Shown here: positions 256 through 11,554 of the stretch, one piece after another
How the letters are laid out: every line of letters starts with the position of its first letter
Numbering within the stretch: the first letter of the stretch is position 1
From: a virus
IMG/VR virus record: IMGVR_UViG_3300032240_002045
Span: 1-64,000 of that record
Length of the DNA: 64,000 bases
Strand: one strand, 5' to 3'
The notes under the pieces: generated by a model
Database searches by the model: none
The model's input: the letters and a program-made list of their open reading frames with translations, nothing else
Told to the model about the DNA's origin: nothing
Made by a program: the position numbers and the translations under genes

Positions 256-1554
256 TTATGCCCAAGAAGTCATTGTGACTGTTGCTGATAGAGCTGTTGA
301 GGCTGTACCCGCTGCAATTGACTGTGACTTGACTGTGCCAGAAGCACCTGTGAGTTTTGTACCAGGTGTGATAGCGCCTGAGTCGGCAACTGTCCATCCT
401 GAACCTGCAATAACAAGTGTTGTTCCTGAACCACCGGTTACAGTCCAAGTACCAACAAGTGCTGCTGGGATACCTGTACCTGTAGCGATAGTTACCTTTG
501 TACCTACTGGCCATGTGCTTGTTCCGCCAGAGACGGTTACAGTTGCGGCAGTAGTTGTTGTTACGTTGATCTGTGTTGGCTGTGTAGCTGTATTTGTAGC
601 GCCAGTTGTATTTGTGATGTTAGCTGTAGCAAATCCAGCGTCCTTAAGGGAGTCAAGACCAAGAGCGGTTGTGAGACCAAGGATTGAAGGAACGTCGATG
701 TAAGCAACGCCTGATACGTAAGCTCCGTCAGATGCTGACAGTGCTGTAGCAAGCTGAACTTTACCGCGCTGTCCTGTAAGAAGACCTGCGTTAGCTGAGT
801 TAGTTACTGTGAACTTAAGAGCATCTGCTGAAGCAACAGTTGCTGCTGAAAGATTGTAAGCTCCTGCTGTAAGGCCTGTGATATCAACTGAGTCGTTCTT
901 TGCAAGCTTGTTCTGTGCTGTGTAAGTAACAGTTGTTCCATCGCCTGAAACTGCTGTAACCATGTAGTTACCTGCAGCTGGTGTAAATGATGGGTACCCG
1001 CCCCAACCTGTTTCATCAAGTTCGTGGTTACGTGTTGGAACTGTCTGAGTGATTCCGTTGTTTAGTGTCTTTGAGATTCCCGCAAACTCTAAACGAGCTC
1101 CAGTAACTTGAGTTGTAGCTGACCAACCCGCGTCCGCACCAAATCCTGAAAGGGATCCAACAAGGACCTTAGCAATACCTGACTGTGAAGAATCTGAAGT
1201 TGAACCTGAGTTAGTGACGGTGAAACCTGTGTAAGCACCAGCTGAACCTACAAGGGATGCAATCTTTACATCTGTAAGGTTACCTGCTGCGGTAGTAAGG
1301 CCGGAAATAGTTACGTTCTGACCAACTTGAAATGTGTTAGCAGCTGTGTATGTGATGGTTGTGCCATCGCTTGAAGTCGCTGTTACTACAGCTGTCTTGT
1401 AAGAAACTAGATTTGAACCTGTTGTTCCGCCAATATTGGACGCAGCTGTTTCTGTGCGTTCATCGTTTGGCTGTAATGGGAAATTTCCCCATACGTAATC
1501 GATAGCTGGGGATCCAGCGGTATCTAACGTGTGAGCGTTATTGTTTGTTGCCAT
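256..1554 (-). CDS. Virion accessory/structural protein with repeated beta domains and a split PASTA-like domain
   Basis: Thr/Gly/Ala-rich; repeated DGTTxTYTAxNxxxxGxxVxIxGLT units; VPSILGLT..LKDAGF and GTVKSQS PASTA-like segments. Confidence 0.6.
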   Translation of the reverse strand: MATNNNAHTLDTAGSPAIDYVWGNFPLQPNDERTETAASNIGGTTGSNLVSYKTAVVTATSSDGTTITYTAANTFQVGQNVTISGLTTAAGNLTDVKIASLVGSAGAYTGFTVTNSGSTSDSSQSGIAKVLVGSLSGFGADAGWSATTQVTGARLEFAGISKTLNNGITQTVPTRNHELDETGWGGYPSFTPAAGNYMVTAVSGDGTTVTYTAQNKLAKNDSVDITGLTAGAYNLSAATVASADALKFTVTNSANAGLLTGQRGKVQLATALSASDGAYVSGVAYIDVPSILGLTTALGLDSLKDAGFATANITNTTGATNTATQPTQINVTTTTAATVTVSGGTSTWPVGTKVTIATGTGIPAALVGTWTVTGGSGTTLVIAGSGWTVADSGAITPGTKLTGASGTVKSQSIAAGTASTALSATVTMTSWA

Positions 1555-1664: not shown

Positions 1665-2654
1665 CTAAAGTCCTTTTATTTCAAAGTAATATGCTTTAAA
1701 GTCTATACCGGCTTTTGTTTGGTAATCATCTAACAGTTCTTTTGTGGGAGACCCCCAATACCCCAATATCTCCCCTGTTGCAATCTTTTTAGCCCTAACT
1801 AAAGACGCATGGTAATTGCCCCACAGCTGCTCATTTTTTGACTTATCTGGCACGTTTGTTGATGTGCGCCAATCTTTTTTGTCTGGGTCTCTGCCTAATT
1901 TGTTTTTATGAAGTAACAAAGTATCTTTTATAGAAAAAATTCTGTAACCACGAGTCCATAGCCGTATAGCATACGAAAGCTCTTCACCTTCAAATACCAA
2001 CATAGGATCCGGCAGTACGTCTTCTAACATCGATATTGGTCCAAAAACGTAATGACCAACAATTGTGTACTGTTCAATAAACCCGTTTGGATGCTTTGAC
2101 CAATCAACCGATACAGGGCCTGCGCTAACGGATTTAACAAAATGATTTGGGTCATACGGCTTAAATTCTATTTTTCCATTGTAAATAGTGTCTGTTTTTA
2201 TGTAATTATACGGATCTATAAAATCTCCGTTATGAAGGCGCGGCTTATCCTCAGCATCACCGTACCAATAAGGGACGTAAGCGCTAATAATAGCTTTATC
2301 TATATTGTTAACTTTTAAAATATTTTTATAATTATTGACTATATCCGTGTCCCAGTGTTTTTCAAAAATCATATGAGCATCAACTTGCAAATGATAATTT
2401 TGTTTTCTATCACCTATTAATTGTGAATACATTCTGGCTTTTCCAACACCTAATGGGCCGCCATAGGATAACTTTATGTGGTTTATATTTAAAGTTAAAT
2501 TATCAAGATCATGATCGATTGGGTAAAAATCATGGGTAATTATGTCAAAATAAAGATTTTCGGGAACGTCAGCTGATATTAATGCACTCTTAATAGTTTG
2601 ATGAAGATCGCGCTCATTGCATGCAGAAATTGTTAAAAGTATAGTTTCACTCAT
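1665..2654 (-). CDS. GT60-like (Skp1 hydroxyproline GlcNAc-transferase family) glycosyltransferase
   Basis: GVGKAR, LQVDAHMIF..WD and F.GEE...A.RLWTRGY.IF motifs typical of the GlcNAc/GT60 family. Confidence 0.85.
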   Translation of the reverse strand: MSETILLTISACNERDLHQTIKSALISADVPENLYFDIITHDFYPIDHDLDNLTLNINHIKLSYGGPLGVGKARMYSQLIGDRKQNYHLQVDAHMIFEKHWDTDIVNNYKNILKVNNIDKAIISAYVPYWYGDAEDKPRLHNGDFIDPYNYIKTDTIYNGKIEFKPYDPNHFVKSVSAGPVSVDWSKHPNGFIEQYTIVGHYVFGPISMLEDVLPDPMLVFEGEELSYAIRLWTRGYRIFSIKDTLLLHKNKLGRDPDKKDWRTSTNVPDKSKNEQLWGNYHASLVRAKKIATGEILGYWGSPTKELLDDYQTKAGIDFKAYYFEIKGL

Positions 2655-3366
2655 TTTTGGTTATTACCTTTGGGCTTTGTGGGTTTGGCGGTAAAAGTTT
2701 TCCTAAAGATTTTTTGTATAAATTTGGAAACGATTTAAACCCAGGCTCATTTAAAGATGATCGCAAGTTAGAGTATTCTTCTACTTCTTTGTTCAACTCT
2801 TTAGTTACAGGGGCAATTATGAACGCTGTTGAGTTTAATAAATTTATTGGGTAGTTAAAAATAGTTACGTAGGGGGTACCAGCTTTAAATACCACCGGGA
2901 CATTTGGAACCATCATTTGCCAACAATATTGAATTTGATTAAAATGATTGATGTCAGACCTTAATAATGCAGACATCGGTGTAGCGCCTTCTACAAAATG
3001 ATTGGCAGGACCCTGAAGCAACAGGTAATGATCTGGGTCTGTTTCAATGTACGAATTTAAATAAAAAGTTATAGTCCCATTAGCGGTGGTTGTATCAACC
3101 AAACGCTGCCCGTTAGGAAGAAACTCACCTTTTAATATTTTTACATGGTCTTTGCTTGTGTCTCTCACACCATCCCACATTACTTCAACGTCTTGTGGTA
3201 GCAAGAACTCCCACCCATGCCGGTTTGCCATGGACATGGGTTGACATCTATAACCATGCCCTTCAATAGTGTTATCTAAAAAATCACGTTTGATAGGGGC
3301 GGGTCTAACAACCGGGTAAGAGCACGACGGATCAGATGACCATATTTTTATATATGGCTGGATCAT
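2647..3366 (-). CDS. DUF6065-family protein
   Basis: GYRCQPMSMANRHGWEFLLP and GPAN..V.GATP motifs. Confidence 0.7.
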   Translation of the reverse strand: MIQPYIKIWSSDPSCSYPVVRPAPIKRDFLDNTIEGHGYRCQPMSMANRHGWEFLLPQDVEVMWDGVRDTSKDHVKILKGEFLPNGQRLVDTTTANGTITFYLNSYIETDPDHYLLLQGPANHFVEGATPMSALLRSDINHFNQIQYCWQMMVPNVPVVFKAGTPYVTIFNYPINLLNSTAFIIAPVTKELNKEVEEYSNLRSSLNEPGFKSFPNLYKKSLGKLLPPNPQSPKVITKNE

Positions 3367-4079
3367 TAAGCTCTTTTTGTTCCATATTTGTTTGTAACAT
3401 CTTTTGGATGATATGTTGGCGATTCGTTACGATGAGCAAATTCATTTCTATCGGTCATAAGAACTAATGAATACTTAAAGCCATCGTCAGTCACAGGTTC
3501 AGCGGAATGTTCGTATATAAATGAAGACGGAAAAAGAACAACATCTCCGGCTTTAGGCTTGTATGTTAAATCAAATTTTGGAAAAGTTAGCTCTCCGCCC
3601 TCATAATCATCATTTGGGTATCCAACTACCGAAACGGTGCATCTGTAGGCTTCTCCATCATCCGTGTGTACTTTAAAGAATTCACCTTTTCCGTAACGAA
3701 CAATATTAATACACTCATAGTAATCAATGTAGTTTAAAGAGTGTTTTTGTAAATAATGAGACATGCAAATTTTAACAATGTCGATAAATTGTTCGTACAA
3801 TAAACAAAAGTCTTCGGAGTCATCGTCTCTAGGCCCTAACATGCCATCGTTTTTAATTTTAAAGTCTTTACACTTACGGCTTTCATCATCCTGCCGGTCG
3901 TAACTTAAATACGCAGATTTCCAAGCAAAACGCGTACCATCTTTAGCTAATCCGGTTTCAATGCGGTTAACTACGTCTAACTCTTCAATAATGGCATTAT
4001 GGTAAACATAAATTCCAGGAGCTACTTCTTCAAAATCTACTTCCCACTCTTGGTTATGGCAATAAGTTTTTTCTATCAT
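3366..4079 (-). CDS. 2OG-Fe(II) oxygenase, prolyl-4-hydroxylase-like
   Basis: RYGKGEFFKVHTD (HxD), NDDYEGGELTF, FPSSFIYEH..PV...KYS. Confidence 0.9.
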   Translation of the reverse strand: MIEKTYCHNQEWEVDFEEVAPGIYVYHNAIIEELDVVNRIETGLAKDGTRFAWKSAYLSYDRQDDESRKCKDFKIKNDGMLGPRDDDSEDFCLLYEQFIDIVKICMSHYLQKHSLNYIDYYECINIVRYGKGEFFKVHTDDGEAYRCTVSVVGYPNDDYEGGELTFPKFDLTYKPKAGDVVLFPSSFIYEHSAEPVTDDGFKYSLVLMTDRNEFAHRNESPTYHPKDVTNKYGTKRA

Positions 4080-4104
4080 TTTACGCTCCTTTTATTTAAC
4101 TAAA

Positions 4105-4338
4105 TTACCATTTTCCAATTGGGCATACTGAATCTTGAAGTTTTACTTTTAAACTCATTAAACATCCGCATTTTTTGCATTGACGCGTTATAGGTATAAG
4201 TTCTGGGCACGTTTTGCAAATATTAAGTCTGGTAGCGGCAATATCCTCTGTAACTCTTAATTCTCCGCTAAGTATATGCCAAGGGCGAGTGGTTCCTAAA
4301 TTTTTTTTATACTGTTCCCAAGGAGTTAATTCAGACAT
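4105..4338 (-). CDS. Small Cys-rich protein (DUF6171-like)
   Basis: RLNICKTCP...QCKKCGC...K.KL...CPIGKW. Confidence 0.7.
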   Translation of the reverse strand: MSELTPWEQYKKNLGTTRPWHILSGELRVTEDIAATRLNICKTCPELIPITRQCKKCGCLMSLKVKLQDSVCPIGKW

Positions 4339-4341
4339 AGG

Positions 4342-4548
4342 TTACTCAATTGGTGGGACAAACGTTGAGCCATCATAAGTCCATCCCGGTAAAACTTCCA
4401 AACCATCTGGAATTGATACAAATTTTGGATTTGAAGCCATGCCCGCGTCCATTCTAGGGCCGTAGTTATTAGATACCTCATCGGAGTCAAAGCTGAAAAT
4501 GGTAAAAACATCTTCACCCGCAACACCTGCATAACGTTTCCAAGTCAT
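4342..4548 (-). CDS. Small fibre-associated (assembly chaperone-like) protein
   Basis: C-terminal GWTYDGSTFVPP, typical of proteins downstream of fibre genes. Confidence 0.5.
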   Translation of the reverse strand: MTWKRYAGVAGEDVFTIFSFDSDEVSNNYGPRMDAGMASNPKFVSIPDGLEVLPGWTYDGSTFVPPIE

Positions 4549-4581
4549 AATTATCTCCTTTTTAAAAGTTTAACATAAAAG

Positions 4582-5721
4582 TTAAATTGCGCAAAGTGCT
4601 CCGCCATCTTGGCAACCATAGTATGGAGGTGGGCAAGGACGGCGACATCCGCTTGTAAAGCCAGGGTCAACAGCAAAGCCGGGATCAACAGCAAAGCCGG
4701 GATCAACAGCAAATCCAGGATCAACAGCAAAGCCAGGAGAAGTAAATCCAGGAGAAGCAAAGCCAGGATCAACAGCAAAGCCGGGAGAAGCAAAGCTTGG
4801 AGAACTAAAGCTTGGGGCGGGAGCAGCTGGTGTCACGCTGTTAGATGCTGGGCTGTCAATGCTTGTTCCATTAGCATTTGTTGCTTTTATTTTAAAAGTG
4901 TAGGCAGTTCCATTAGTTAACCCGGTAACTGAAATTGGGCTAGTTGTGTTAGTTCCGGTAAATGACCCGGGCGTAGAAGTGGCAGTAAACAGGCTAATTG
5001 ATTTCCCACCTGTTGAGCTGGAATCGCCAGGTATAGTAAAACTGACACTTGCTGAAGTATTACCAGCAGTAGCCGTTGGTGCAGACATAGTTTTCGGAAC
5101 AGTGGTTGCTTGGATAGACAAAGATGAAGAAGACTCAAGTGAGTACCCATTTACATTTTGAGCGGCGGTTGTTACTGAATAGTAAAGTCCTGAGGATAAT
5201 CCACCGACAGTTATGGATAATCCTGAAGATGTGTTAGTAAATGCCCCAGGGGATGTTGTAGCTCTGTACTGAGTAATGGCACTTCCGCCAGTATTAGGGG
5301 CCGTGTAAGTTGTCGTTATTGCACCATCACCCCAAGCTCGCGCAGTTCCCACATCCACAGCATTTGGTGTTCCCATAGTTTGAGGGACTGTTGTAACCGT
5401 AACTGACCCGCTGTAACTTGCAAATAAACTATCACCTGCGTCGTTTGTTGCAACACCAGTAAAAGTGTAAGGGGTAGCAGATACTAAGCCAGTTACTGTT
5501 TGCGTTAACGAAATGCTTGGGGTAGACGTATAAGAAGTTGGGTTTGAGATAGCTTTATAACTTGTTACTGGTAAACCGCCATCCCAAGAAGGTGCGGTAA
5601 GCACTACATCTACACGCCCATCGTTATATGCGCGACCGGTACCAACATTAGTTGCGGAAACAACTACTGGAGAATCTGGCACTTCACGGCTAGAGGATGA
5701 GATAATTCCAATTGATGGCAT
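4582..5721 (-). CDS. Fibronectin type III repeat protein with C-terminal P(S/G)F repeats and Cys-rich tip
   Basis: Three FN3-like units (GG.PVTSY...GL..T.YTF...ATN..G); tail PSF x2 + PGF x8 then CRRPCPPPYYGC...C. Confidence 0.8.
   Translation of the reverse strand: MPSIGIISSSSREVPDSPVVVSATNVGTGRAYNDGRVDVVLTAPSWDGGLPVTSYKAISNPTSYTSTPSISLTQTVTGLVSATPYTFTGVATNDAGDSLFASYSGSVTVTTVPQTMGTPNAVDVGTARAWGDGAITTTYTAPNTGGSAITQYRATTSPGAFTNTSSGLSITVGGLSSGLYYSVTTAAQNVNGYSLESSSSLSIQATTVPKTMSAPTATAGNTSASVSFTIPGDSSSTGGKSISLFTATSTPGSFTGTNTTSPISVTGLTNGTAYTFKIKATNANGTSIDSPASNSVTPAAPAPSFSSPSFASPGFAVDPGFASPGFTSPGFAVDPGFAVDPGFAVDPGFAVDPGFTSGCRRPCPPPYYGCQDGGALCAI
4657..4815 (-). repeat. 15/18-nt tandem coding repeat (AVDPGF / ASPGF units)
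   Basis: Repeated GCAAAGCCGGGATCAACA variants on the + strand. Confidence 0.9.
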
Positions 5722-5728
5722 GATTACC

Positions 5729-6478
5729 TTAAGCTAACGATAAGTCTCCGACTAGCGCCCAATTATCAGCGTTGTCGAGCTTAATTAGGGTCGCAGATGA
5801 GTATTGAGCACGAAGGTAATAACCCGGTGTTCCTACAATAGAAGCGGTTCCCGCGCCAATAATTTGAACTTTTCCAGCACCCCTACGAAAAATATTAATT
5901 TGCGATCCCTGCGGAAAGGCAGTTGTGCTATTTGCTGGAACTGTAATTTGTAAATTAGAAGCGCTGTTTACAACAATTAAATTGTTTTTATCAGTTAAAG
6001 CTATTTGATACGCAGTTGTTTGGTTGTTAATTGCAAGATCTGGCGGGGTTACCGTTCCTACAAAAGCTCCGGAGGAGTTAACGTAAGATAATACAGTTGC
6101 TGAGGAATTTTGGAATTCAAGGAGATTAGCTGATTGTGACGCTGCCCCTTTTACAATAAGCCCTTTAGTTGTAGAGGCTCCAACCGTAATTACGTTAGCT
6201 GTGTCCCCAGCTTTACGGAGGTATTGTGTATGAGCGTCAGATACAACGCCAACTTCAAGATTGTTGAGGCGAAGACCTACTGTGGAAAATAAGGTAGATG
6301 TTCCATTAAAGGTTCCACCAGAACTAGGTGTGGTTGAACGATTTGGCTCTGTTCCAAGAGTGTTCTCAATAGCAATAACTTCAGCTTGAATTGAGTTAGG
6401 GTGAGAAGCGTCGATAATATCGACCACGTTAATTTTGTCTAAAAATCCCGCAATTGACGTTGGAAACGATGCCGCCAT
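5729..6478 (-). CDS. Tail fibre-like structural protein
   Basis: N-terminal FPTSI...H.N.IQAEV.AIE..LG, HTQYL, GAASQSANL.E.Q and C-terminal W.LVGDL motifs. Confidence 0.65.
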   Translation of the reverse strand: MAASFPTSIAGFLDKINVVDIIDASHPNSIQAEVIAIENTLGTEPNRSTTPSSGGTFNGTSTLFSTVGLRLNNLEVGVVSDAHTQYLRKAGDTANVITVGASTTKGLIVKGAASQSANLLEFQNSSATVLSYVNSSGAFVGTVTPPDLAINNQTTAYQIALTDKNNLIVVNSASNLQITVPANSTTAFPQGSQINIFRRGAGKVQIIGAGTASIVGTPGYYLRAQYSSATLIKLDNADNWALVGDLSLA

Positions 6479-7313: not shown

Positions 7314-8057
7314 CTAAATAAGATCCATTAACGCTGCCCAAGTTTTTGGCCCAACAATTCCGTTGGAGTCTAAGTTAGCGTGGTTGTTTTGAAATGCAAC
7401 AACTTTTGCTTTTGTAGCCGGTCCAAAATCCCCATCTTCTACGAGTGTGAGTGCGTGTTGAATAGCTTTTACTGCTTCTCCCTTGTCTCCAGGTTTAATT
7501 TGTCCGGGAAAAGCTGGCTTAAGGGCGGGAACTGGATCTACGTGCACATCATTACCTACGTAATTAGGGCGCCCAAAACCTTCAATAAATACTGGGATAC
7601 CCTTAGCATTCTTTTTATAGGCACGAATCTTTTTTACGGCTTCTCCACCGTTTGCTTGCGAACCAGACTTCTTCTTATCTCCAGAAGTATTACCCTCCAT
7701 AGTAGTAACAGTTCCATCGCCATTATCCTTAACTACGATTCCAACGTGCTCAATTGGAGCACCGCCAGCCATAAAGTCAAAGTATACAATATCTCCCGGC
7801 TCTGGCTTTGCTACCGCGGCGTCTGTCCAAGTTCCAAGTTTTTTAAATGCGGCAGCCCCAGCCATTGTTGAAACAGTGTTAGGGATTTTAACTCCGGCTT
7901 GGTTTGCCACCCACATGCAGAAACTTCCGCACCAAGGCAAAAAGTTGGCTTTTGTAAAAGCTCCGTATTTGGTTTCATTATCTTTTGGGCCTTCTACATA
8001 GCCTTCTTCTTTAAGTGCAAGTTCTACCATTAATGCGGCTGTACCTTTGTCTGCCAT
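7314..8057 (-). CDS. Endolysin: CHAP domain plus peptidoglycan-binding domain
   Basis: GYVEGPKDNETKYG, PWCGSF, PGDIVYF, HVGIV, EGNTS; C-terminal DGDFGPAT...FQ...GIVGPKTW. Confidence 0.92.
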   Translation of the reverse strand: MADKGTAALMVELALKEEGYVEGPKDNETKYGAFTKANFLPWCGSFCMWVANQAGVKIPNTVSTMAGAAAFKKLGTWTDAAVAKPEPGDIVYFDFMAGGAPIEHVGIVVKDNGDGTVTTMEGNTSGDKKKSGSQANGGEAVKKIRAYKKNAKGIPVFIEGFGRPNYVGNDVHVDPVPALKPAFPGQIKPGDKGEAVKAIQHALTLVEDGDFGPATKAKVVAFQNNHANLDSNGIVGPKTWAALMDLI

Positions 8058-8409: not shown

Positions 8410-8591
8410 TATTCATCTCCTGGGTTTCTAAGTCTAAGGGTTATGCACCATACGACAAATGATGCAAGGGTTACTTTTCCAATAACCGTTTTTGCTGAGC
8501 CTGTAAGGACAAGCCAAGCTGAAAATAATCCAACAAACGTCCAAATTTCTGAAAAGAAATCTTTGGATATGTCTTTAAAAAATTGTTTCAT
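8409..8591 (-). CDS. Small two-TM membrane protein of the lysis cassette
   Basis: Hydrophobic 60 aa, translationally coupled to neighbours. Confidence 0.6.
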   Translation of the reverse strand: MKQFFKDISKDFFSEIWTFVGLFSAWLVLTGSAKTVIGKVTLASFVVWCITLRLRNPGDE

Positions 8592-11554
8592 TAATTAAAT
8601 CTCCTCCGTATAGCGGCAACTACGACAGTTATAACTAAAATCTTTTTTGCTTTTTTACGAGTTACTGGGGACATGTCGTTTCCGATATTCGCAAGAGCCA
8701 CATAAGCTTGATTAATAGCTTGTGCTGCGGCGCCAACGCCTGGTAGAACATCTAATGCTGCGGGTAATTCAACAGGTACTAATTCTACAGGGACTGCAAT
8801 ATCTGGTGCATTAAAAGTAGTGCCTCCGGGTTGACCGATAAATGTGTCCTCTGTAGTAATAGCTTCTGGTGGAATTGGGTCACCTGATCCTGGTGCTGGA
8901 GCCGGCGGTGTTAAGTTGCCGTCTTCACCAACAACTTGCGGTGCTGTTTGAGTACCAAAGAATTGAATACCGCCATTCTCAACACCTGTAACATCTACTT
9001 GTATATGTGGAATTAAAATTTCCGCTGGCGCTGGTTTTGGAATATCTGTAGGCAATTGAGCTGGGTTATTAGGTACAAGACCAATAGCCTCAAAAGCTTT
9101 AATCTCAGTTTTAGTTAAGTAAGTTTCGGGAGCAACAGCTGGTTTCCAAGTCTCTGCTGTAGTATCCTTTGTAACTTCTATTACAACGGGAGGTTCAGGT
9201 GCAGGAGCGGGAGCTGGTTCTGGCGCAGGTGGCGGACCTTCTGGTGTTGGTGGAGGGTCTGCGGGTGTTTCAGGTGCGGGCGCAGGGTCAGGTTGAGGAG
9301 TGGGTATTTCCTCTGGAACGGGCGCTACGTCAGGTACGGGAGGTTGGTCAGGCCCTGTATCGGGATCCGCAACAGGTGGCTCCTCTGGTTGAGCAGGAGG
9401 CTCTGGTTGAGGTTCTGGAGCCACAGGAGCAGGCTCTTCAACGGGAGCGGGCTGTTCTACAGGAGCTGGCTCAGGGGCCACTGGTGGAGCTGTAGGCGAT
9501 GGATCAGGATTTAGGACCGGAGATGGCTCCGGAGACGGCTCAGGCATTGGAGAGGGCTGCTCAACGGGCGTTGGCAAAGGCTCTGGAGAAGAAGGCACAG
9601 CAGCAGCAGCAGCAGCAGCCTTAGCCGCATCGGCTGCCGCTTTATCTGCGGCTTGTTTAGCGGCTAATTCGTCCGCTGCTTTCTTATCGGCTAATGCTTT
9701 TGCTTCTGCAGCAAAACGTTCTTTTTCTGCCGTTTGAATAGCCGATACCGCCACGGTTACTTTTGTAACTGCGGACTCCGCAAATTGATCAGCGGTAGTG
9801 ATAGCTGAGGCTGTAGCTGTTGTTAAAGTTTGAGCAGTTGCTTGAATAACCGTTAAGTTTTCTTGAGATTTTGTTAAGTTTTGTTGAGCGACTACTAGGT
9901 TTTGTTTAGCGGTAGCCAAATCTTGTTGTGCTTGATCATAAGCAGTCTGTGCTTGAGCAATTGTTGCTGTTCCAGTATTTGCAGCATGTATAGCATTTTG
10001 CCATGATTCGTAGGCAGCATTTCTTTCAGCAAGCTTTGTATCGTATGCAGCTTGTGCGTCTGCAGCAGCTTGAGATGTGACGGGCACAGCTGCTTGCGCG
10101 GATGTAAGGGTTTGAGTTGCTGTAGCAAGGGAAGTTTGAGCGCTTGTTAACTGTTGGTTAGCTGCTACAAAAGTAGCAGATGCGGTATTAGCAGCAGCAA
10201 CCAATACAGGGTCTTTAGTAACCACTGTGGTTGCAAAAGCGGTATTCATTGGGTTAGTCCAATAACCAGTTCCATCAGCTCTAGTAATGCCCCAACCAAG
10301 TGTTACGTTTGCCCCACCACCATTTTCGTAGTACCAAAGAATAAAATCTTGTTGCTTATCTGTAGTTGTGTTGTACGTAGGCGAGAACTGACTCCACGTT
10401 GGGCCTTGGTCTCTCCAGTTATTAATAGCAAGTTGACCATCTATGTATAGCTTTGATCCATCATCTGAGTACACGCCATATTTAACCGCCACCGCTTCTT
10501 CTGGAACGGTAATGGTTCCTTCATATTTAATAATAACTCGATCACTACGAACACCCAAAACAACTCCGCTACCCCAACTTGCAGAAATGTATGGAACTGT
10601 TGTTGTTAACACAGGTGTTGCGTTTGCGTCAGGAATTGCGGGAGCGGCTCCTCCGTTATAAGTATATGCAGAGGCTTTCACACCATTAGTTGTGACTGTT
10701 ACGGAAGATGCTTCCGCTGCTGCTTTTGCTGCGGTGGATGCGGCTGTAGCGGCATCGACTGCAGATTGTTGATTTGCAACGTTTGTAGTAGCGACCTCTA
10801 CAACTGTTTGAGCAACTGGCACTGCCGCCACTGCCGCATCTGCTGCGGCTTGAGCTGGTGCAATTTGGTCATGCACGGGACCAAGCTCGGCGTTCTTATT
10901 ATAAAAATTAACGCAAGCAGACCCTGGTGCGCAAGAGGCTGCTGCATCTAAAACTGGTTGAGCTTCTTGTGCTGTAGTTAATGTTGTTTGTGTATTAGTA
11001 ACGGTTTGCGTGGCTAGTGCTACCACCGCTGTTTTATCTACAACTACAGCTGTGGCTGTATCAACAGAGGCTTGCGCGGCGGCAACCAGAACAACAGCCG
11101 TTGCTGCTGATTGCGCTGTTACTGTAGCTGTTTCTACTGCGGTTGTTGCGGCAACAATTGCTGTATGCGCTTCTGCTATTGGGGTTGCTGCAACGGTTGC
11201 AGAGGCGGGTGCGGCACTTGTAACAGCTGAACTTAGTGCTACAGTTGCGGTCTCTATTTTACTTTGAACGGAGGCAATTGCTAATGTGGCAGACTGTGGT
11301 GTACCCGTTGTTGAGTTTTGTTGCTGGGTGGGTTGTGGGTTTGATACAGGGGCACTACCCTGAACGGGAGAAGTCACGGTCGCTGTATCAGATGTTGCTG
11401 AAGGAGCAAGAGAAATCACAATACCTGGAGCAGAACCAGTGGAAGAATCAGGGCTAACTTGAACTGTAAGTTCGTCGGCCTTAGCGCCGTGTTGCCCAGT
11501 TAAATAAAAGAAAATTGCAACAAACAAAGTTGCATAAAAACGTGATGATTTCAT
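8591..11554 (-). CDS. Large exported protein: Ala/Thr coiled coil, PA14 domain, Pro-rich stalk, C-terminal hydrophobic anchor
   Basis: Signal peptide ending AKA-D; SDDGSKLYIDG..I.NW.DQG and YYENGGGA (PA14); PEP repeats; ILVITVVVAAIRRR end. Confidence 0.8.
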   Translation of the reverse strand: MKSSRFYATLFVAIFFYLTGQHGAKADELTVQVSPDSSTGSAPGIVISLAPSATSDTATVTSPVQGSAPVSNPQPTQQQNSTTGTPQSATLAIASVQSKIETATVALSSAVTSAAPASATVAATPIAEAHTAIVAATTAVETATVTAQSAATAVVLVAAAQASVDTATAVVVDKTAVVALATQTVTNTQTTLTTAQEAQPVLDAAASCAPGSACVNFYNKNAELGPVHDQIAPAQAAADAAVAAVPVAQTVVEVATTNVANQQSAVDAATAASTAAKAAAEASSVTVTTNGVKASAYTYNGGAAPAIPDANATPVLTTTVPYISASWGSGVVLGVRSDRVIIKYEGTITVPEEAVAVKYGVYSDDGSKLYIDGQLAINNWRDQGPTWSQFSPTYNTTTDKQQDFILWYYENGGGANVTLGWGITRADGTGYWTNPMNTAFATTVVTKDPVLVAAANTASATFVAANQQLTSAQTSLATATQTLTSAQAAVPVTSQAAADAQAAYDTKLAERNAAYESWQNAIHAANTGTATIAQAQTAYDQAQQDLATAKQNLVVAQQNLTKSQENLTVIQATAQTLTTATASAITTADQFAESAVTKVTVAVSAIQTAEKERFAAEAKALADKKAADELAAKQAADKAAADAAKAAAAAAAVPSSPEPLPTPVEQPSPMPEPSPEPSPVLNPDPSPTAPPVAPEPAPVEQPAPVEEPAPVAPEPQPEPPAQPEEPPVADPDTGPDQPPVPDVAPVPEEIPTPQPDPAPAPETPADPPPTPEGPPPAPEPAPAPAPEPPVVIEVTKDTTAETWKPAVAPETYLTKTEIKAFEAIGLVPNNPAQLPTDIPKPAPAEILIPHIQVDVTGVENGGIQFFGTQTAPQVVGEDGNLTPPAPAPGSGDPIPPEAITTEDTFIGQPGGTTFNAPDIAVPVELVPVELPAALDVLPGVGAAAQAINQAYVALANIGNDMSPVTRKKAKKILVITVVVAAIRRRFN

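Follow-up and report, generated by a model that had tools for sequence, protein, structure and literature searches.

The uncultured virus genome IMGVR_UViG_3300032240_002045 of the IMG/VR collection is complete, with 97,993 bp and direct terminal repeats, and its first 64 kb (positions 1 to 64,000) form the stretch of DNA analysed here, referred to as the window. Between positions 1665 and 5721, the minus strand of the window carries a cassette encoding an FN3 protein with a tail of ten Pro-(Gly/Ser)-Phe units, two small proteins, a prolyl 4-hydroxylase (P4H)-like oxygenase, a DUF6065 protein and a GT60-like glycosyltransferase. Based on sequence comparison, we see about an even chance that this cassette is a phage protein-tailoring set acting on the tail of the FN3 protein, which is predicted to be associated with a fibre. 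The oxygenase probably modifies this tail. For the transferase, action on the same tail is an evenly balanced proposition, and a hydroxyproline-O-N-acetylhexosamine (HexNAc) linkage is a tentative and rather doubtful one. Direct results of the computation are the gene content, the catalytic residues, the folds and the finding that tail and hydroxylase are inherited together.

The minus-strand gene run starts downstream of a CHAP endolysin gene (7314-8057) and comprises, in this order, genes for a fibre-like protein, the FN3 protein, orf68, DUF6171, the PF13640 oxygenase, DUF6065, the PF11397 transferase and orf432. From 5721 down to 1665, the intergenic spacing is only –8 to +33 nt, and no minus-strand terminator-like site was found between 8200 and a hairpin at 202-244. 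This tight spacing and the lack of internal terminator-like sites support an operon structure. Each enzyme gene is present in exactly one copy in the complete genome. An earlier note on this DNA, made from the sequence alone, had described the genes at 1665-5721 one by one, and its account, including coordinates and strand, proved correct in every detail. The identities it had assigned to the P4H-like oxygenase, DUF6065 and the GT60-like transferase were likewise upheld; all three proteins score above their Pfam cut-offs.

The candidate substrate is a protein of 379 amino acids (4582-5721, minus strand) consisting of three FN3 domains (Pfam fn3, 4.3e-12), a repeat tail and a Cys-rich end. The ten P[SG]F units, two PSF and eight PGF, start at residues 303, 308, 313, 319, 324, 329, 335, 341, 347 and 353, and the sequence AVDPGF occurs five times. 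This tract (residues 303-355; 4657-4815, minus strand), which is the predicted modification site, was delimited by regular-expression positions and by Tandem Repeats Finder, according to which the underlying DNA is a tandem array with a period of 18 nt, 7.6 copies and 84% matches. The translation then ends in a stretch with four cysteines (4585-4656, minus strand), a place at which relatives carry Cys-rich or Hint/intein-like ends. In the whole genome, the FN3 protein is the only open reading frame (ORF) that reaches seven Pro and seven aromatic residues within 40 residues. Its N-terminal FN3 part is 32-45% identical to that of Pro-Phe-tailed proteins from phages with hydroxylase arrays.

The oxygenase (237 amino acids; 3366-4079, minus strand) resembles collagen-type P4Hs among the Fe(II)/2-oxoglutarate (2OG) oxygenases and matches PF13640 (2OG-FeII_Oxy_3) with 4.8e-13 and 50.3 bits, compared with a cut-off of 27. 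Residues H138, D140, H191 and K202, which make up the HxD...H...K set, are invariant across 13 orthologues; by its position, K202 is presumably the Lys that binds 2OG. A profile of these orthologues, searched against the PDB, matched the P4H of B. anthracis (3.5e-6), the lysyl hydroxylase LH3 (2e-4), the P4H of PBCV-1 (5c5t, 6e-4), the transmembrane P4H (4e-3) and also P3H1. The PDB matches, 17 at E ≤ 1 or 14 at E ≤ 0.1, included neither PhyA nor a HIF-PHD chain, although absence from such a list does not exclude that family. Among the phage records, the oxygenase had matches only to partial 2OG oxygenases of cyanophages. By these comparisons, the oxygenase is of the collagen/PBCV-1-like peptidyl hydroxylase type, with an activity that is predicted. 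The minimal, classical site of collagen P4Hs is X-Pro-Gly.

Relatives of the cassette were sampled in three ways, centred on the transferase, on the hydroxylase or on the substrate, in the last case with a profile of the FN3 N-terminal part from which the tail was left out. The gene calls in relatives are crude ORF picks, and some repeat genes are mis-framed, so that all counts are lower bounds. For the substrate-centred sample, 78 of at least 512 loci were examined, and counts were taken from 61 non-redundant loci whose downstream sequence extends for 1.5 kb or more. Ten of them have both a tract and a P4H gene, none has a tract only, two have a P4H gene only (both with weak tracts) and 49 have neither (Fisher 7e-10, phylogeny ignored). 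The C-terminal ends within this FN3 family are interchangeable and can be Gly-rich, Hint-like, Pro-aromatic or of other kinds. Because P4H genes are found only where the FN3 protein has a Pro-aromatic tail, tail and hydroxylase appear to be swapped together, as a single module attached to a conserved fibre adaptor, which we regard as the strongest evidence for the tail as the substrate.

The hydroxylase-centred sample, in which 80 of at least 533 IMG/VR loci were examined, gave a similar picture: a tract is present in 67 of the 80 loci, at a median distance of 781 bp from an enzyme gene, and DUF6065 in 77. A fibre-like gene precedes the Pro-aromatic protein in 50 of these loci and in 48 of the 78 substrate-centred ones. 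Eleven of the 13 loci lacking a tract contain less than 1.3 kb upstream of the first P4H gene. The number of hydroxylase paralogues per locus has a median of six and a maximum of 11. Of the 98 Pro-aromatic tracts in ∼2.6 Mb of DNA from related phages, 94 have a P4H, DUF6065 or GT60 gene within 3 kb, which goes beyond chance. Across the samples, the tail sequences vary widely (PGF, PFFPPFF and APPGFF are further examples), with Pro and an aromatic residue as the constant elements. A check set by the earlier note, linkage between the enzymes and Pro-repeat FN3 genes in relatives, was thus strongly positive for the hydroxylase.

Further variation was seen in the FN3 family itself. The closest relatives of the FN3 part in the window (47-55% identity) have no tract and neither a P4H nor a GT60 gene, and one of these loci (L315) has a DUF6065-like gene. 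In the IMG/VR loci L314-L391, the FN3 N-terminal part is a conserved adaptor with swapped C-terminal ends, frequently a Gly-rich stretch followed by a conserved domain of the ...TGSGSITF type; other ends are Hint-like or Pro-aromatic. In many relatives, for example L041 (6066-7976), L082 (3349-4707) and many tails of L082-L160, the Pro-aromatic tract runs straight into a Hint/intein-like domain. These ends start with C-[IV]-x-x-D-T and give weak matches to Pfam Hint and Intein_splicing (1e-3 to 4e-3), which suggests self-cleavage or transfer of the putatively modified tail in these relatives. The low-Pro extreme is the tail of L359, (FSPFGVFG)n, with one Pro per eight residues and a single P4H-like gene a few genes away.

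DUF6065 is a conserved partner of the hydroxylase: a P4H of the window type is directly followed by a DUF6065 gene in 70 of the 80 hydroxylase-centred loci. The protein in the window belongs to type 1, has 239 amino acids (2647-3366, minus strand; its start overlaps the P4H stop at 3366) and matches PF19541 with 1.4e-32 and 113.5 bits against a cut-off of 26.6. Type 1 is confined to P4H loci, and a second type also accompanies other kinds of tail in the substrate-centred sample. A structural model (predicted local distance difference test score, pLDDT, 77) aligned with 14 dUTPase or dUTPase-fold chains at VIA Z-scores of 8.2-10.6 and root mean square deviations of 2.6-3.2 Å over 99-123 residues, and scores dropped clearly below those chains; Foldseek gave 5e-4 to the dUTPase fold. 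Judged by this model, DUF6065 has a dUTPase fold, and the same fold rules it out as a cupin or second oxygenase. Residues C41, G51, G66, N122 and P165 are invariant. With regard to the five catalytic motifs of dUTPases, the window protein gave no match at the sequence level; on inspection, type 2 members show a G-x-x-D-x-D-x-Y/W stretch that recalls motif III. No homologues of the window protein were found in 50,697 phage records. Herpesvirus dUTPase-related proteins are also among the fold matches. DUF6065 might join the hydroxylase as a partner subunit, bind uridine nucleotides or, like those herpesvirus proteins, have a structural role, in this case in association with the fibre. A parallel for a partner subunit is protein disulfide isomerase in the vertebrate collagen P4H.

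The last enzyme of the cassette (329 amino acids; 1665-2654, minus strand) is similar to GT-A polypeptide HexNAc-transferases. Residues 57-270 match PF11397, 'Glycosyltransferase (GlcNAc)', with 2.9e-23 and 83.4 bits against a cut-off of 21, and all 21 homologues carry this domain. A DxH motif in place of DxD defines the families GT60 and GT27; in the window enzyme it reads DAH, and Q90-x-D92-A-H94 is invariant across the 21 homologues. The top Foldseek matches of the model (pLDDT 90.3) were the polypeptide N-acetylgalactosaminyltransferases (ppGalNAc-Ts) GalNAc-T2, T10, T12 and T1, at 5.5e-11 to 1e-8. The protein has no domain beyond GT-A, and in particular no ricin domain. PDB searches with the single sequence and with a profile gave no match, and no solved GT60 structure was found. 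The PF11397 match, the invariant DAH and the ppGalNAc-T-like fold indicate a protein acceptor. GT27 polypeptide GalNAc-transferases are relatives of GT60 according to West and colleagues (PMC8724618). The structural check proposed in the earlier note thus yielded a ppGalNAc-T-like fold for the transferase and a dUTPase fold for DUF6065, and the oxygenase was assessed by sequence and profile comparison.

A single-sequence scan of viral contigs with the transferase gave no match, tblastn in the phage records returned only jumbo-phage transferases (24% identical), and a megablast of 25 kb against the 50,697 phage records was likewise without a match. By an alignment-based scan, relatives of the transferase were found on 431 IMG/VR and 450 metagenome contigs, of which 159 loci were examined. 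They revealed a recurrent cassette consisting of a fibre-like gene, an FN3 protein with a Pro-aromatic tail, orf68 and/or DUF6171, P4H, DUF6065 and GT60, and each of the 24 tracts detected at a strict threshold has an enzyme gene no more than 918 bp away. The tails in GT60 loci include (PNF)n, PPVFT, PPTFT, PPSF/PPDF, PPPPSF, PPGFF and FFPFFPP; the PPVFT motif, found in relative L009, recalls the PPVYK repeat of plants. Next to Phe-type tracts, 14 non-redundant GT60 genes were counted, and for every one of them a P4H gene is located at a distance of 4 kb or less. Ser, Thr and Tyr are all missing from the (PNF)n tracts of L004 and L165, so that O-glycosylation there would require a hydroxyl to be introduced first.

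Another five GT60 genes have Tyr-type repeats as neighbours, and all of these lack a P4H gene, so that no case falls off the diagonal formed with the 14 Phe-type loci. A GT60 clade with Tyr/Trp-type Pro repeats (YYAPTYY, APYH, APYWTPYY) and type 2 DUF6065 was seen in L019, L041, L057, L073, L205 and L208. A search of the whole records of five P4H-less loci, four of them Tyr-type, found no PF13640 domain in these records, which are 4-50% complete. We dropped this Phe/Tyr dichotomy as independent statistical support, because the Tyr/no-P4H transferases form a single clade and the pattern counts as one event. This clade may represent a Tyr- or Thr-directed variant of the module. The distribution of the transferase fits an enzyme that requires a hydroxyl, which Tyr already has and which the oxygenase would supply on Phe-type tails. 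It leaves Pro and Phe undistinguished as the hydroxyl site and shows that the GT60 family can work without an oxygenase. A dependence of the transferase on the oxygenase, as implied by the earlier note, is therefore compatible with the Phe-type loci, which always have a P4H gene, but not with the one Tyr-type clade. Divergently transcribed pairs of P4H-like and GT60-like genes were also found in cell genomes of SAR86 and Neomarinimicrobiota (L266, L270, L273, L274), without phage context; these pairs add an independent linkage between P4H and GT60.

From these observations we infer a target residue, a sugar, an order of steps, a virion location and a biological role as follows. Tailoring would take place late in infection and in the host cytoplasm, because no signal peptide was found in any cassette protein. 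The P4H-like oxygenase, together with type 1 DUF6065, would hydroxylate the tail using Fe(II), 2OG and O2, most likely on the proline of each X-Pro-Gly/Ser unit. The GT60-like enzyme with its DxH metal site would then add a sugar to the tail, probably HexNAc from a UDP-sugar, and the simplest acceptor would be the new hydroxyl. The product would be a hydroxylated and glycosylated distal stalk on an accessory fibre. GlcNAc as the particular sugar, a place in the virion, the need for O2 and a glycan valency set by the number of repeats, all put forward in the earlier note, are conjectural.

Several points weigh against this proposal. It rests on comparison throughout, its chemistry is predicted, and the association statistics ignore phylogeny and shared ancestry. 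The FN3 protein is placed in the virion only through its neighbours. The hydroxylated residue is a prediction: lysyl hydroxylases belong to the same family, and the aromatic residue of the tracts is as constant as Pro. Ser, a possible native acceptor, is present in five of the ten tail units. GT60 is absent from all 80 hydroxylase-centred loci and present in two of the 61 substrate-centred ones, one of ten with a tract versus one of 51 without, which is no association. One locus (L005) has P4H, DUF6065 and GT60, yet the neighbouring gene has no tract, and the Tyr-type GT60 genes, a single clade with SH-aLRT 99, belong to cassettes without P4H. Finally, GT60 holds Ser/Thr polypeptide GlcNAc-transferases (GlcNAc, N-acetylglucosamine) besides Gnt1 (PMC8724618). 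The linkage that the earlier note expected thus applies to a subset of the transferases, namely the 14 at Phe-type tracts, but GT60 is not part of the conserved core. As for its central claim, that the tail is glycosylated on hydroxyproline, hydroxylation of the tail is well supported by comparison, and the hydroxyproline acceptor is plausible but unproven.

An alternative is two independent decorations, in which the oxygenase hydroxylates the tail and the GT60-like enzyme glycosylates existing hydroxyls in a mucin-type manner, with no sugar on hydroxyproline. The sugar could then go to the Ser residues in the SPGF/SPSF units, to Ser or Thr within the FN3 domains or to orf432, a Ser/Thr-rich protein of which a homologue follows the cassette in L001, L002, L019 and L041. 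We consider this explanation rather improbable, though it has to be taken seriously. The Ser/Thr-specific GT60 members, the Ser/Thr ppGalNAc-transferases as closest folds, the facultative presence of GT60 and its clade beside Tyr/Thr-containing repeats without P4H are all consistent with it, as are mycobacteriophages, which glycosylate their capsid and tail-tube proteins at the C-terminal ends (Freeman 2023, as reported in PMC12619734). It does not readily account for the P4H gene near every GT60 gene at a Phe-type tract, for the (PNF)n tracts, which offer no Ser, Thr or Tyr, or for the recurrence of the P4H-GT60 pairing in SAR86 cell genomes.

Alternatively, the oxygenase could target a residue other than proline, for example the β-carbon or the ring of Phe, and the transferase, if it works on the tail, would use that hydroxyl. 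The invariance of the aromatic residue, equal to that of Pro, and the lysyl hydroxylases among the solved relatives would agree with such a target. The same holds for the strict separation of Phe-type cassettes with P4H from Tyr-type cassettes without (14 versus five), and up to 11 divergent hydroxylases beside FF-rich tracts suggest several target positions. However, by sequence the oxygenase is most similar to prolyl 4-hydroxylases, the Pro-Gly of the tail units agrees with the collagen P4H site, and the Tyr/no-P4H pattern, as one clade, is one event. Moreover, aromatic hydroxylation is not known in the collagen-type P4H family, and we regard a non-proline target as unlikely.

Least likely of all is that the enzymes act elsewhere, on a small molecule or secondary metabolite, on phage DNA or on a host surface component, and are adjacent to the tail only through a shared variable region: the reading of cyanophage arrays as secondary-metabolite tailoring by Iyer et al. 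2010 (PMC2938197), the nucleotide-binding enzyme fold of DUF6065, the low GC content of the enzyme block, which suggests a mobile module (see below), and 41 of 122 non-redundant GT60 genes with neither a hydroxylase nor a tract nearby would all be in line with it, but not the one-to-one association of P4H with Pro-aromatic tails inside one protein family with otherwise different tails, the P4H type of the oxygenase (not TET/JBP or AlkB) or the transferase fold, which is nearest to polypeptide transferases, and no peptide-synthetase or halogenase genes were noted in the genome, although no systematic search for them was made. Hypermodification of DNA as the leading interpretation was rejected, given the P4H-type oxygenase, the polypeptide-type fold of the transferase and the specific association with the tail.

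The proposed tailoring of the FN3 tail by hydroxylation and glycosylation has parallels in several known systems. In the Skp1 pathway of Dictyostelium and Toxoplasma (PMC11570480, PMC3515798), the prolyl 4-hydroxylase PhyA acts first and the GT60 enzyme Gnt1 second. The window shares with it the pairing of a 2OG oxygenase with a PF11397/GT60 transferase of the DxH type and a predicted O2-dependent logic of hydroxylation followed by HexNAc addition. Unlike in the Skp1 pathway, the oxygenase is collagen-type, bacterial/PBCV-1-like, with no PhyA or HIF-PHD chain among its matches, the substrate would be a tandem-repeat tail with ten candidate sites where Skp1 has just one Pro, the enzymes belong to a phage fibre module that includes a dUTPase-fold partner, and GT60 is optional in relatives. 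The parallel drawn in the earlier note therefore extends to the GT60 family and the predicted two-step logic, but for the first step it looks like analogy and not like shared ancestry of the enzyme pair. The P4H of chlorovirus PBCV-1 acts on Pro-rich repeats, (Pro-Ala-Pro-Lys)n (PMC3634087), and is likewise a virus-encoded collagen-type enzyme with a Pro-rich repeat substrate. It comes from a eukaryotic virus, however, with no adjacent substrate gene, transferase or DUF6065 partner described, and the repeats in the window are Pro-aromatic.

Cyanophage Syn9 encodes ten oxygenases together with halogenases, for which a role in secondary metabolism and no protein substrate was proposed, and a protein of the dUTPase fold in which a Cys is conserved has been connected with phage 2OG oxygenases (PMC2938197), a description that the fold and the invariant C41 of DUF6065 match. 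In contrast to Syn9, the window has one oxygenase, one GT60 and a co-inherited repeat-tailed protein. The hydroxylase-array modules of uncultured lake phages share with the window the FN3 N-terminal family, the upstream fibre gene, the pair of P4H and type 1 DUF6065, and orf68 plus DUF6171. They have several hydroxylases (median six, maximum 11), no GT60 in 80 loci and PFFPPFF/APPGFF tracts, whereas the window has one hydroxylase, one GT60 and a sparser tract of xxP(G/S)F hexapeptide and pentapeptide units. As the only P4H-like gene of the genome, the oxygenase is not part of an array of divergent hydroxylase paralogues. Plant and algal extensins and proline-rich proteins also combine Pro-rich tandem repeats with a collagen-type P4H. 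The glycosylation of mycobacteriophage virions is not known to involve an oxygenase step or a repeat tract. There, in phages of an actinobacterial host, transferases decorate C-terminal extensions of the phages' own structural proteins, and the targets named, unlike those proposed here, are capsid and tail-tube proteins (Freeman et al. 2023, as summarized in PMC12619734). In extensins, Ser-Hyp4 repeats (Hyp, hydroxyproline) are hydroxylated and then O-glycosylated on hydroxyproline (PMC5371791). Unlike the window enzymes, those of the plant hydroxyproline-rich glycoproteins work in the secretory pathway with GT31/GT77/GT95 transferases, and homology is limited to the P4H superfamily.

Literature searches returned no description of phage hydroxyproline glycosylation, of DUF6065, or of an oxygenase combined with a fibre and a Pro-aromatic tail. 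The window would represent a minimal one-hydroxylase module with an added transferase, in which chemistry of a known kind appears in a context where it had not been described. In the most specific form of this reading, the ten units of the tail on an accessory fibre would carry hydroxyproline-O-HexNAc, made by one P4H paired obligately with type 1 DUF6065 and one GT60, a possibility that we put forward with clear reservation.

The source is an uncultured lake phage, probably with an actinobacterial host. Both a WhiB gene (2-205; PF02467, 1.7e-14) and the best cellular-genome match of the transferase, a phage-like array on contig CAYVOK010000061.1 (L241) of an Acidimicrobiaceae metagenome-assembled genome (MAG), point to this host group. 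The 10-kb L241 contig, binned with the actinobacterial MAG, carries six P4H-like genes, two DUF6065 genes and one GT60 gene and is probably itself a phage fragment. The WhiB gene converges on the cassette operon, and the near-palindromic hairpin at 202-244 (20-bp stem with nine GC pairs and a T run) may close both; it was scored on the plus strand only, and its use on the minus strand is suggested by the near-palindrome. The GC content of the block from DUF6171 to GT60 (1665-4338) is 35.6-38.9%, compared with 43.5% for the genome (standard deviation 3.2%, 1-kb windows) and 46.8% for the FN3 gene. The lower GC content fits lateral acquisition of the block as a unit, and the four genes (DUF6171, P4H, DUF6065, GT60) look as if they were acquired in this way.

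The remaining genes of the run are accessory. Directly upstream of the substrate gene lies a gene for a tail-fibre-like protein of 249 amino acids (5729-6478, minus strand; phrog_8780 minor tail protein, 3.2e-16; phrog_16053 tail fiber). Two paralogues are encoded within the main structural region, at genome positions 79715-80545 and 84222-84842, so that the fibre gene of the cassette would be part of an accessory fibre module of its own, which follows the lysis genes near the end of the genome. The small accessory protein orf68 (68 amino acids; 4342-4548, minus strand) matched neither Pfam nor PHROG families; in 13 of the 80 hydroxylase-centred loci and in several GT60 loci, a homologue is encoded after the substrate gene and before the first enzyme gene. 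DUF6171 (4105-4338, minus strand; PF19668, 3.2e-8; phrog_13558, 2.8e-14) is a small, Cys-rich, zinc-ribbon-like protein (CxxC...CxxC) that is found in 26 of these 80 loci, mostly immediately before the first P4H gene. The operon ends with orf432 (432 amino acids, Ser/Thr/Gly-rich; 256-1554, minus strand), for which no Pfam or PHROG family match was found and whose homologue in L001 is a strong one (7e-168). It may contribute to the fibre as well or serve as another acceptor, and its membership in the operon is uncertain.

Just upstream of the holin-like and endolysin genes, the minus strand encodes a protein of 987 amino acids (8591-11554) with a signal-peptide-like N-terminus, a PA14 domain (6.7e-7), Ala/Thr/Gln-rich stretches, a Pro-rich region of the PEPSPEP type and a C-terminal hydrophobic anchor. 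These features suggest that the phage encodes here a protein for secretion or for the cell surface. As an alternative substrate of the cassette it is not favoured, given its signal peptide, the lack of an aromatic periodicity and the lack of conserved linkage in relatives.

Aquatic phages carry many genes for 2OG-Fe(II) oxygenases whose substrates have remained unassigned since they were catalogued around 2010, and the only published reading of these enzymes that we found is secondary-metabolite tailoring (PMC2938197). Our comparison points to a concrete candidate for a protein substrate instead, the co-inherited Pro-aromatic tail of a fibre-associated protein. The window holds the simplest form of such a system, with one hydroxylase, its partner, a transferase and a substrate with ten near-identical sites. 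If our reading is correct, this would be the simplest member of widespread fibre-tailoring modules of lake phages, a tractable entry to the function of orphan 2OG oxygenases and the first case of hydroxyproline glycosylation in a phage or bacterial system. If confirmed, it would extend hydroxyproline formation, and possibly its glycosylation, from eukaryotes and giant viruses to bacteriophages, give the dUTPase-fold family DUF6065 a function and introduce an O2-dependent step into the maturation of a phage adsorption structure. It would also define a new type of modular fibre tip, one that is swapped along with its own tailoring enzymes.

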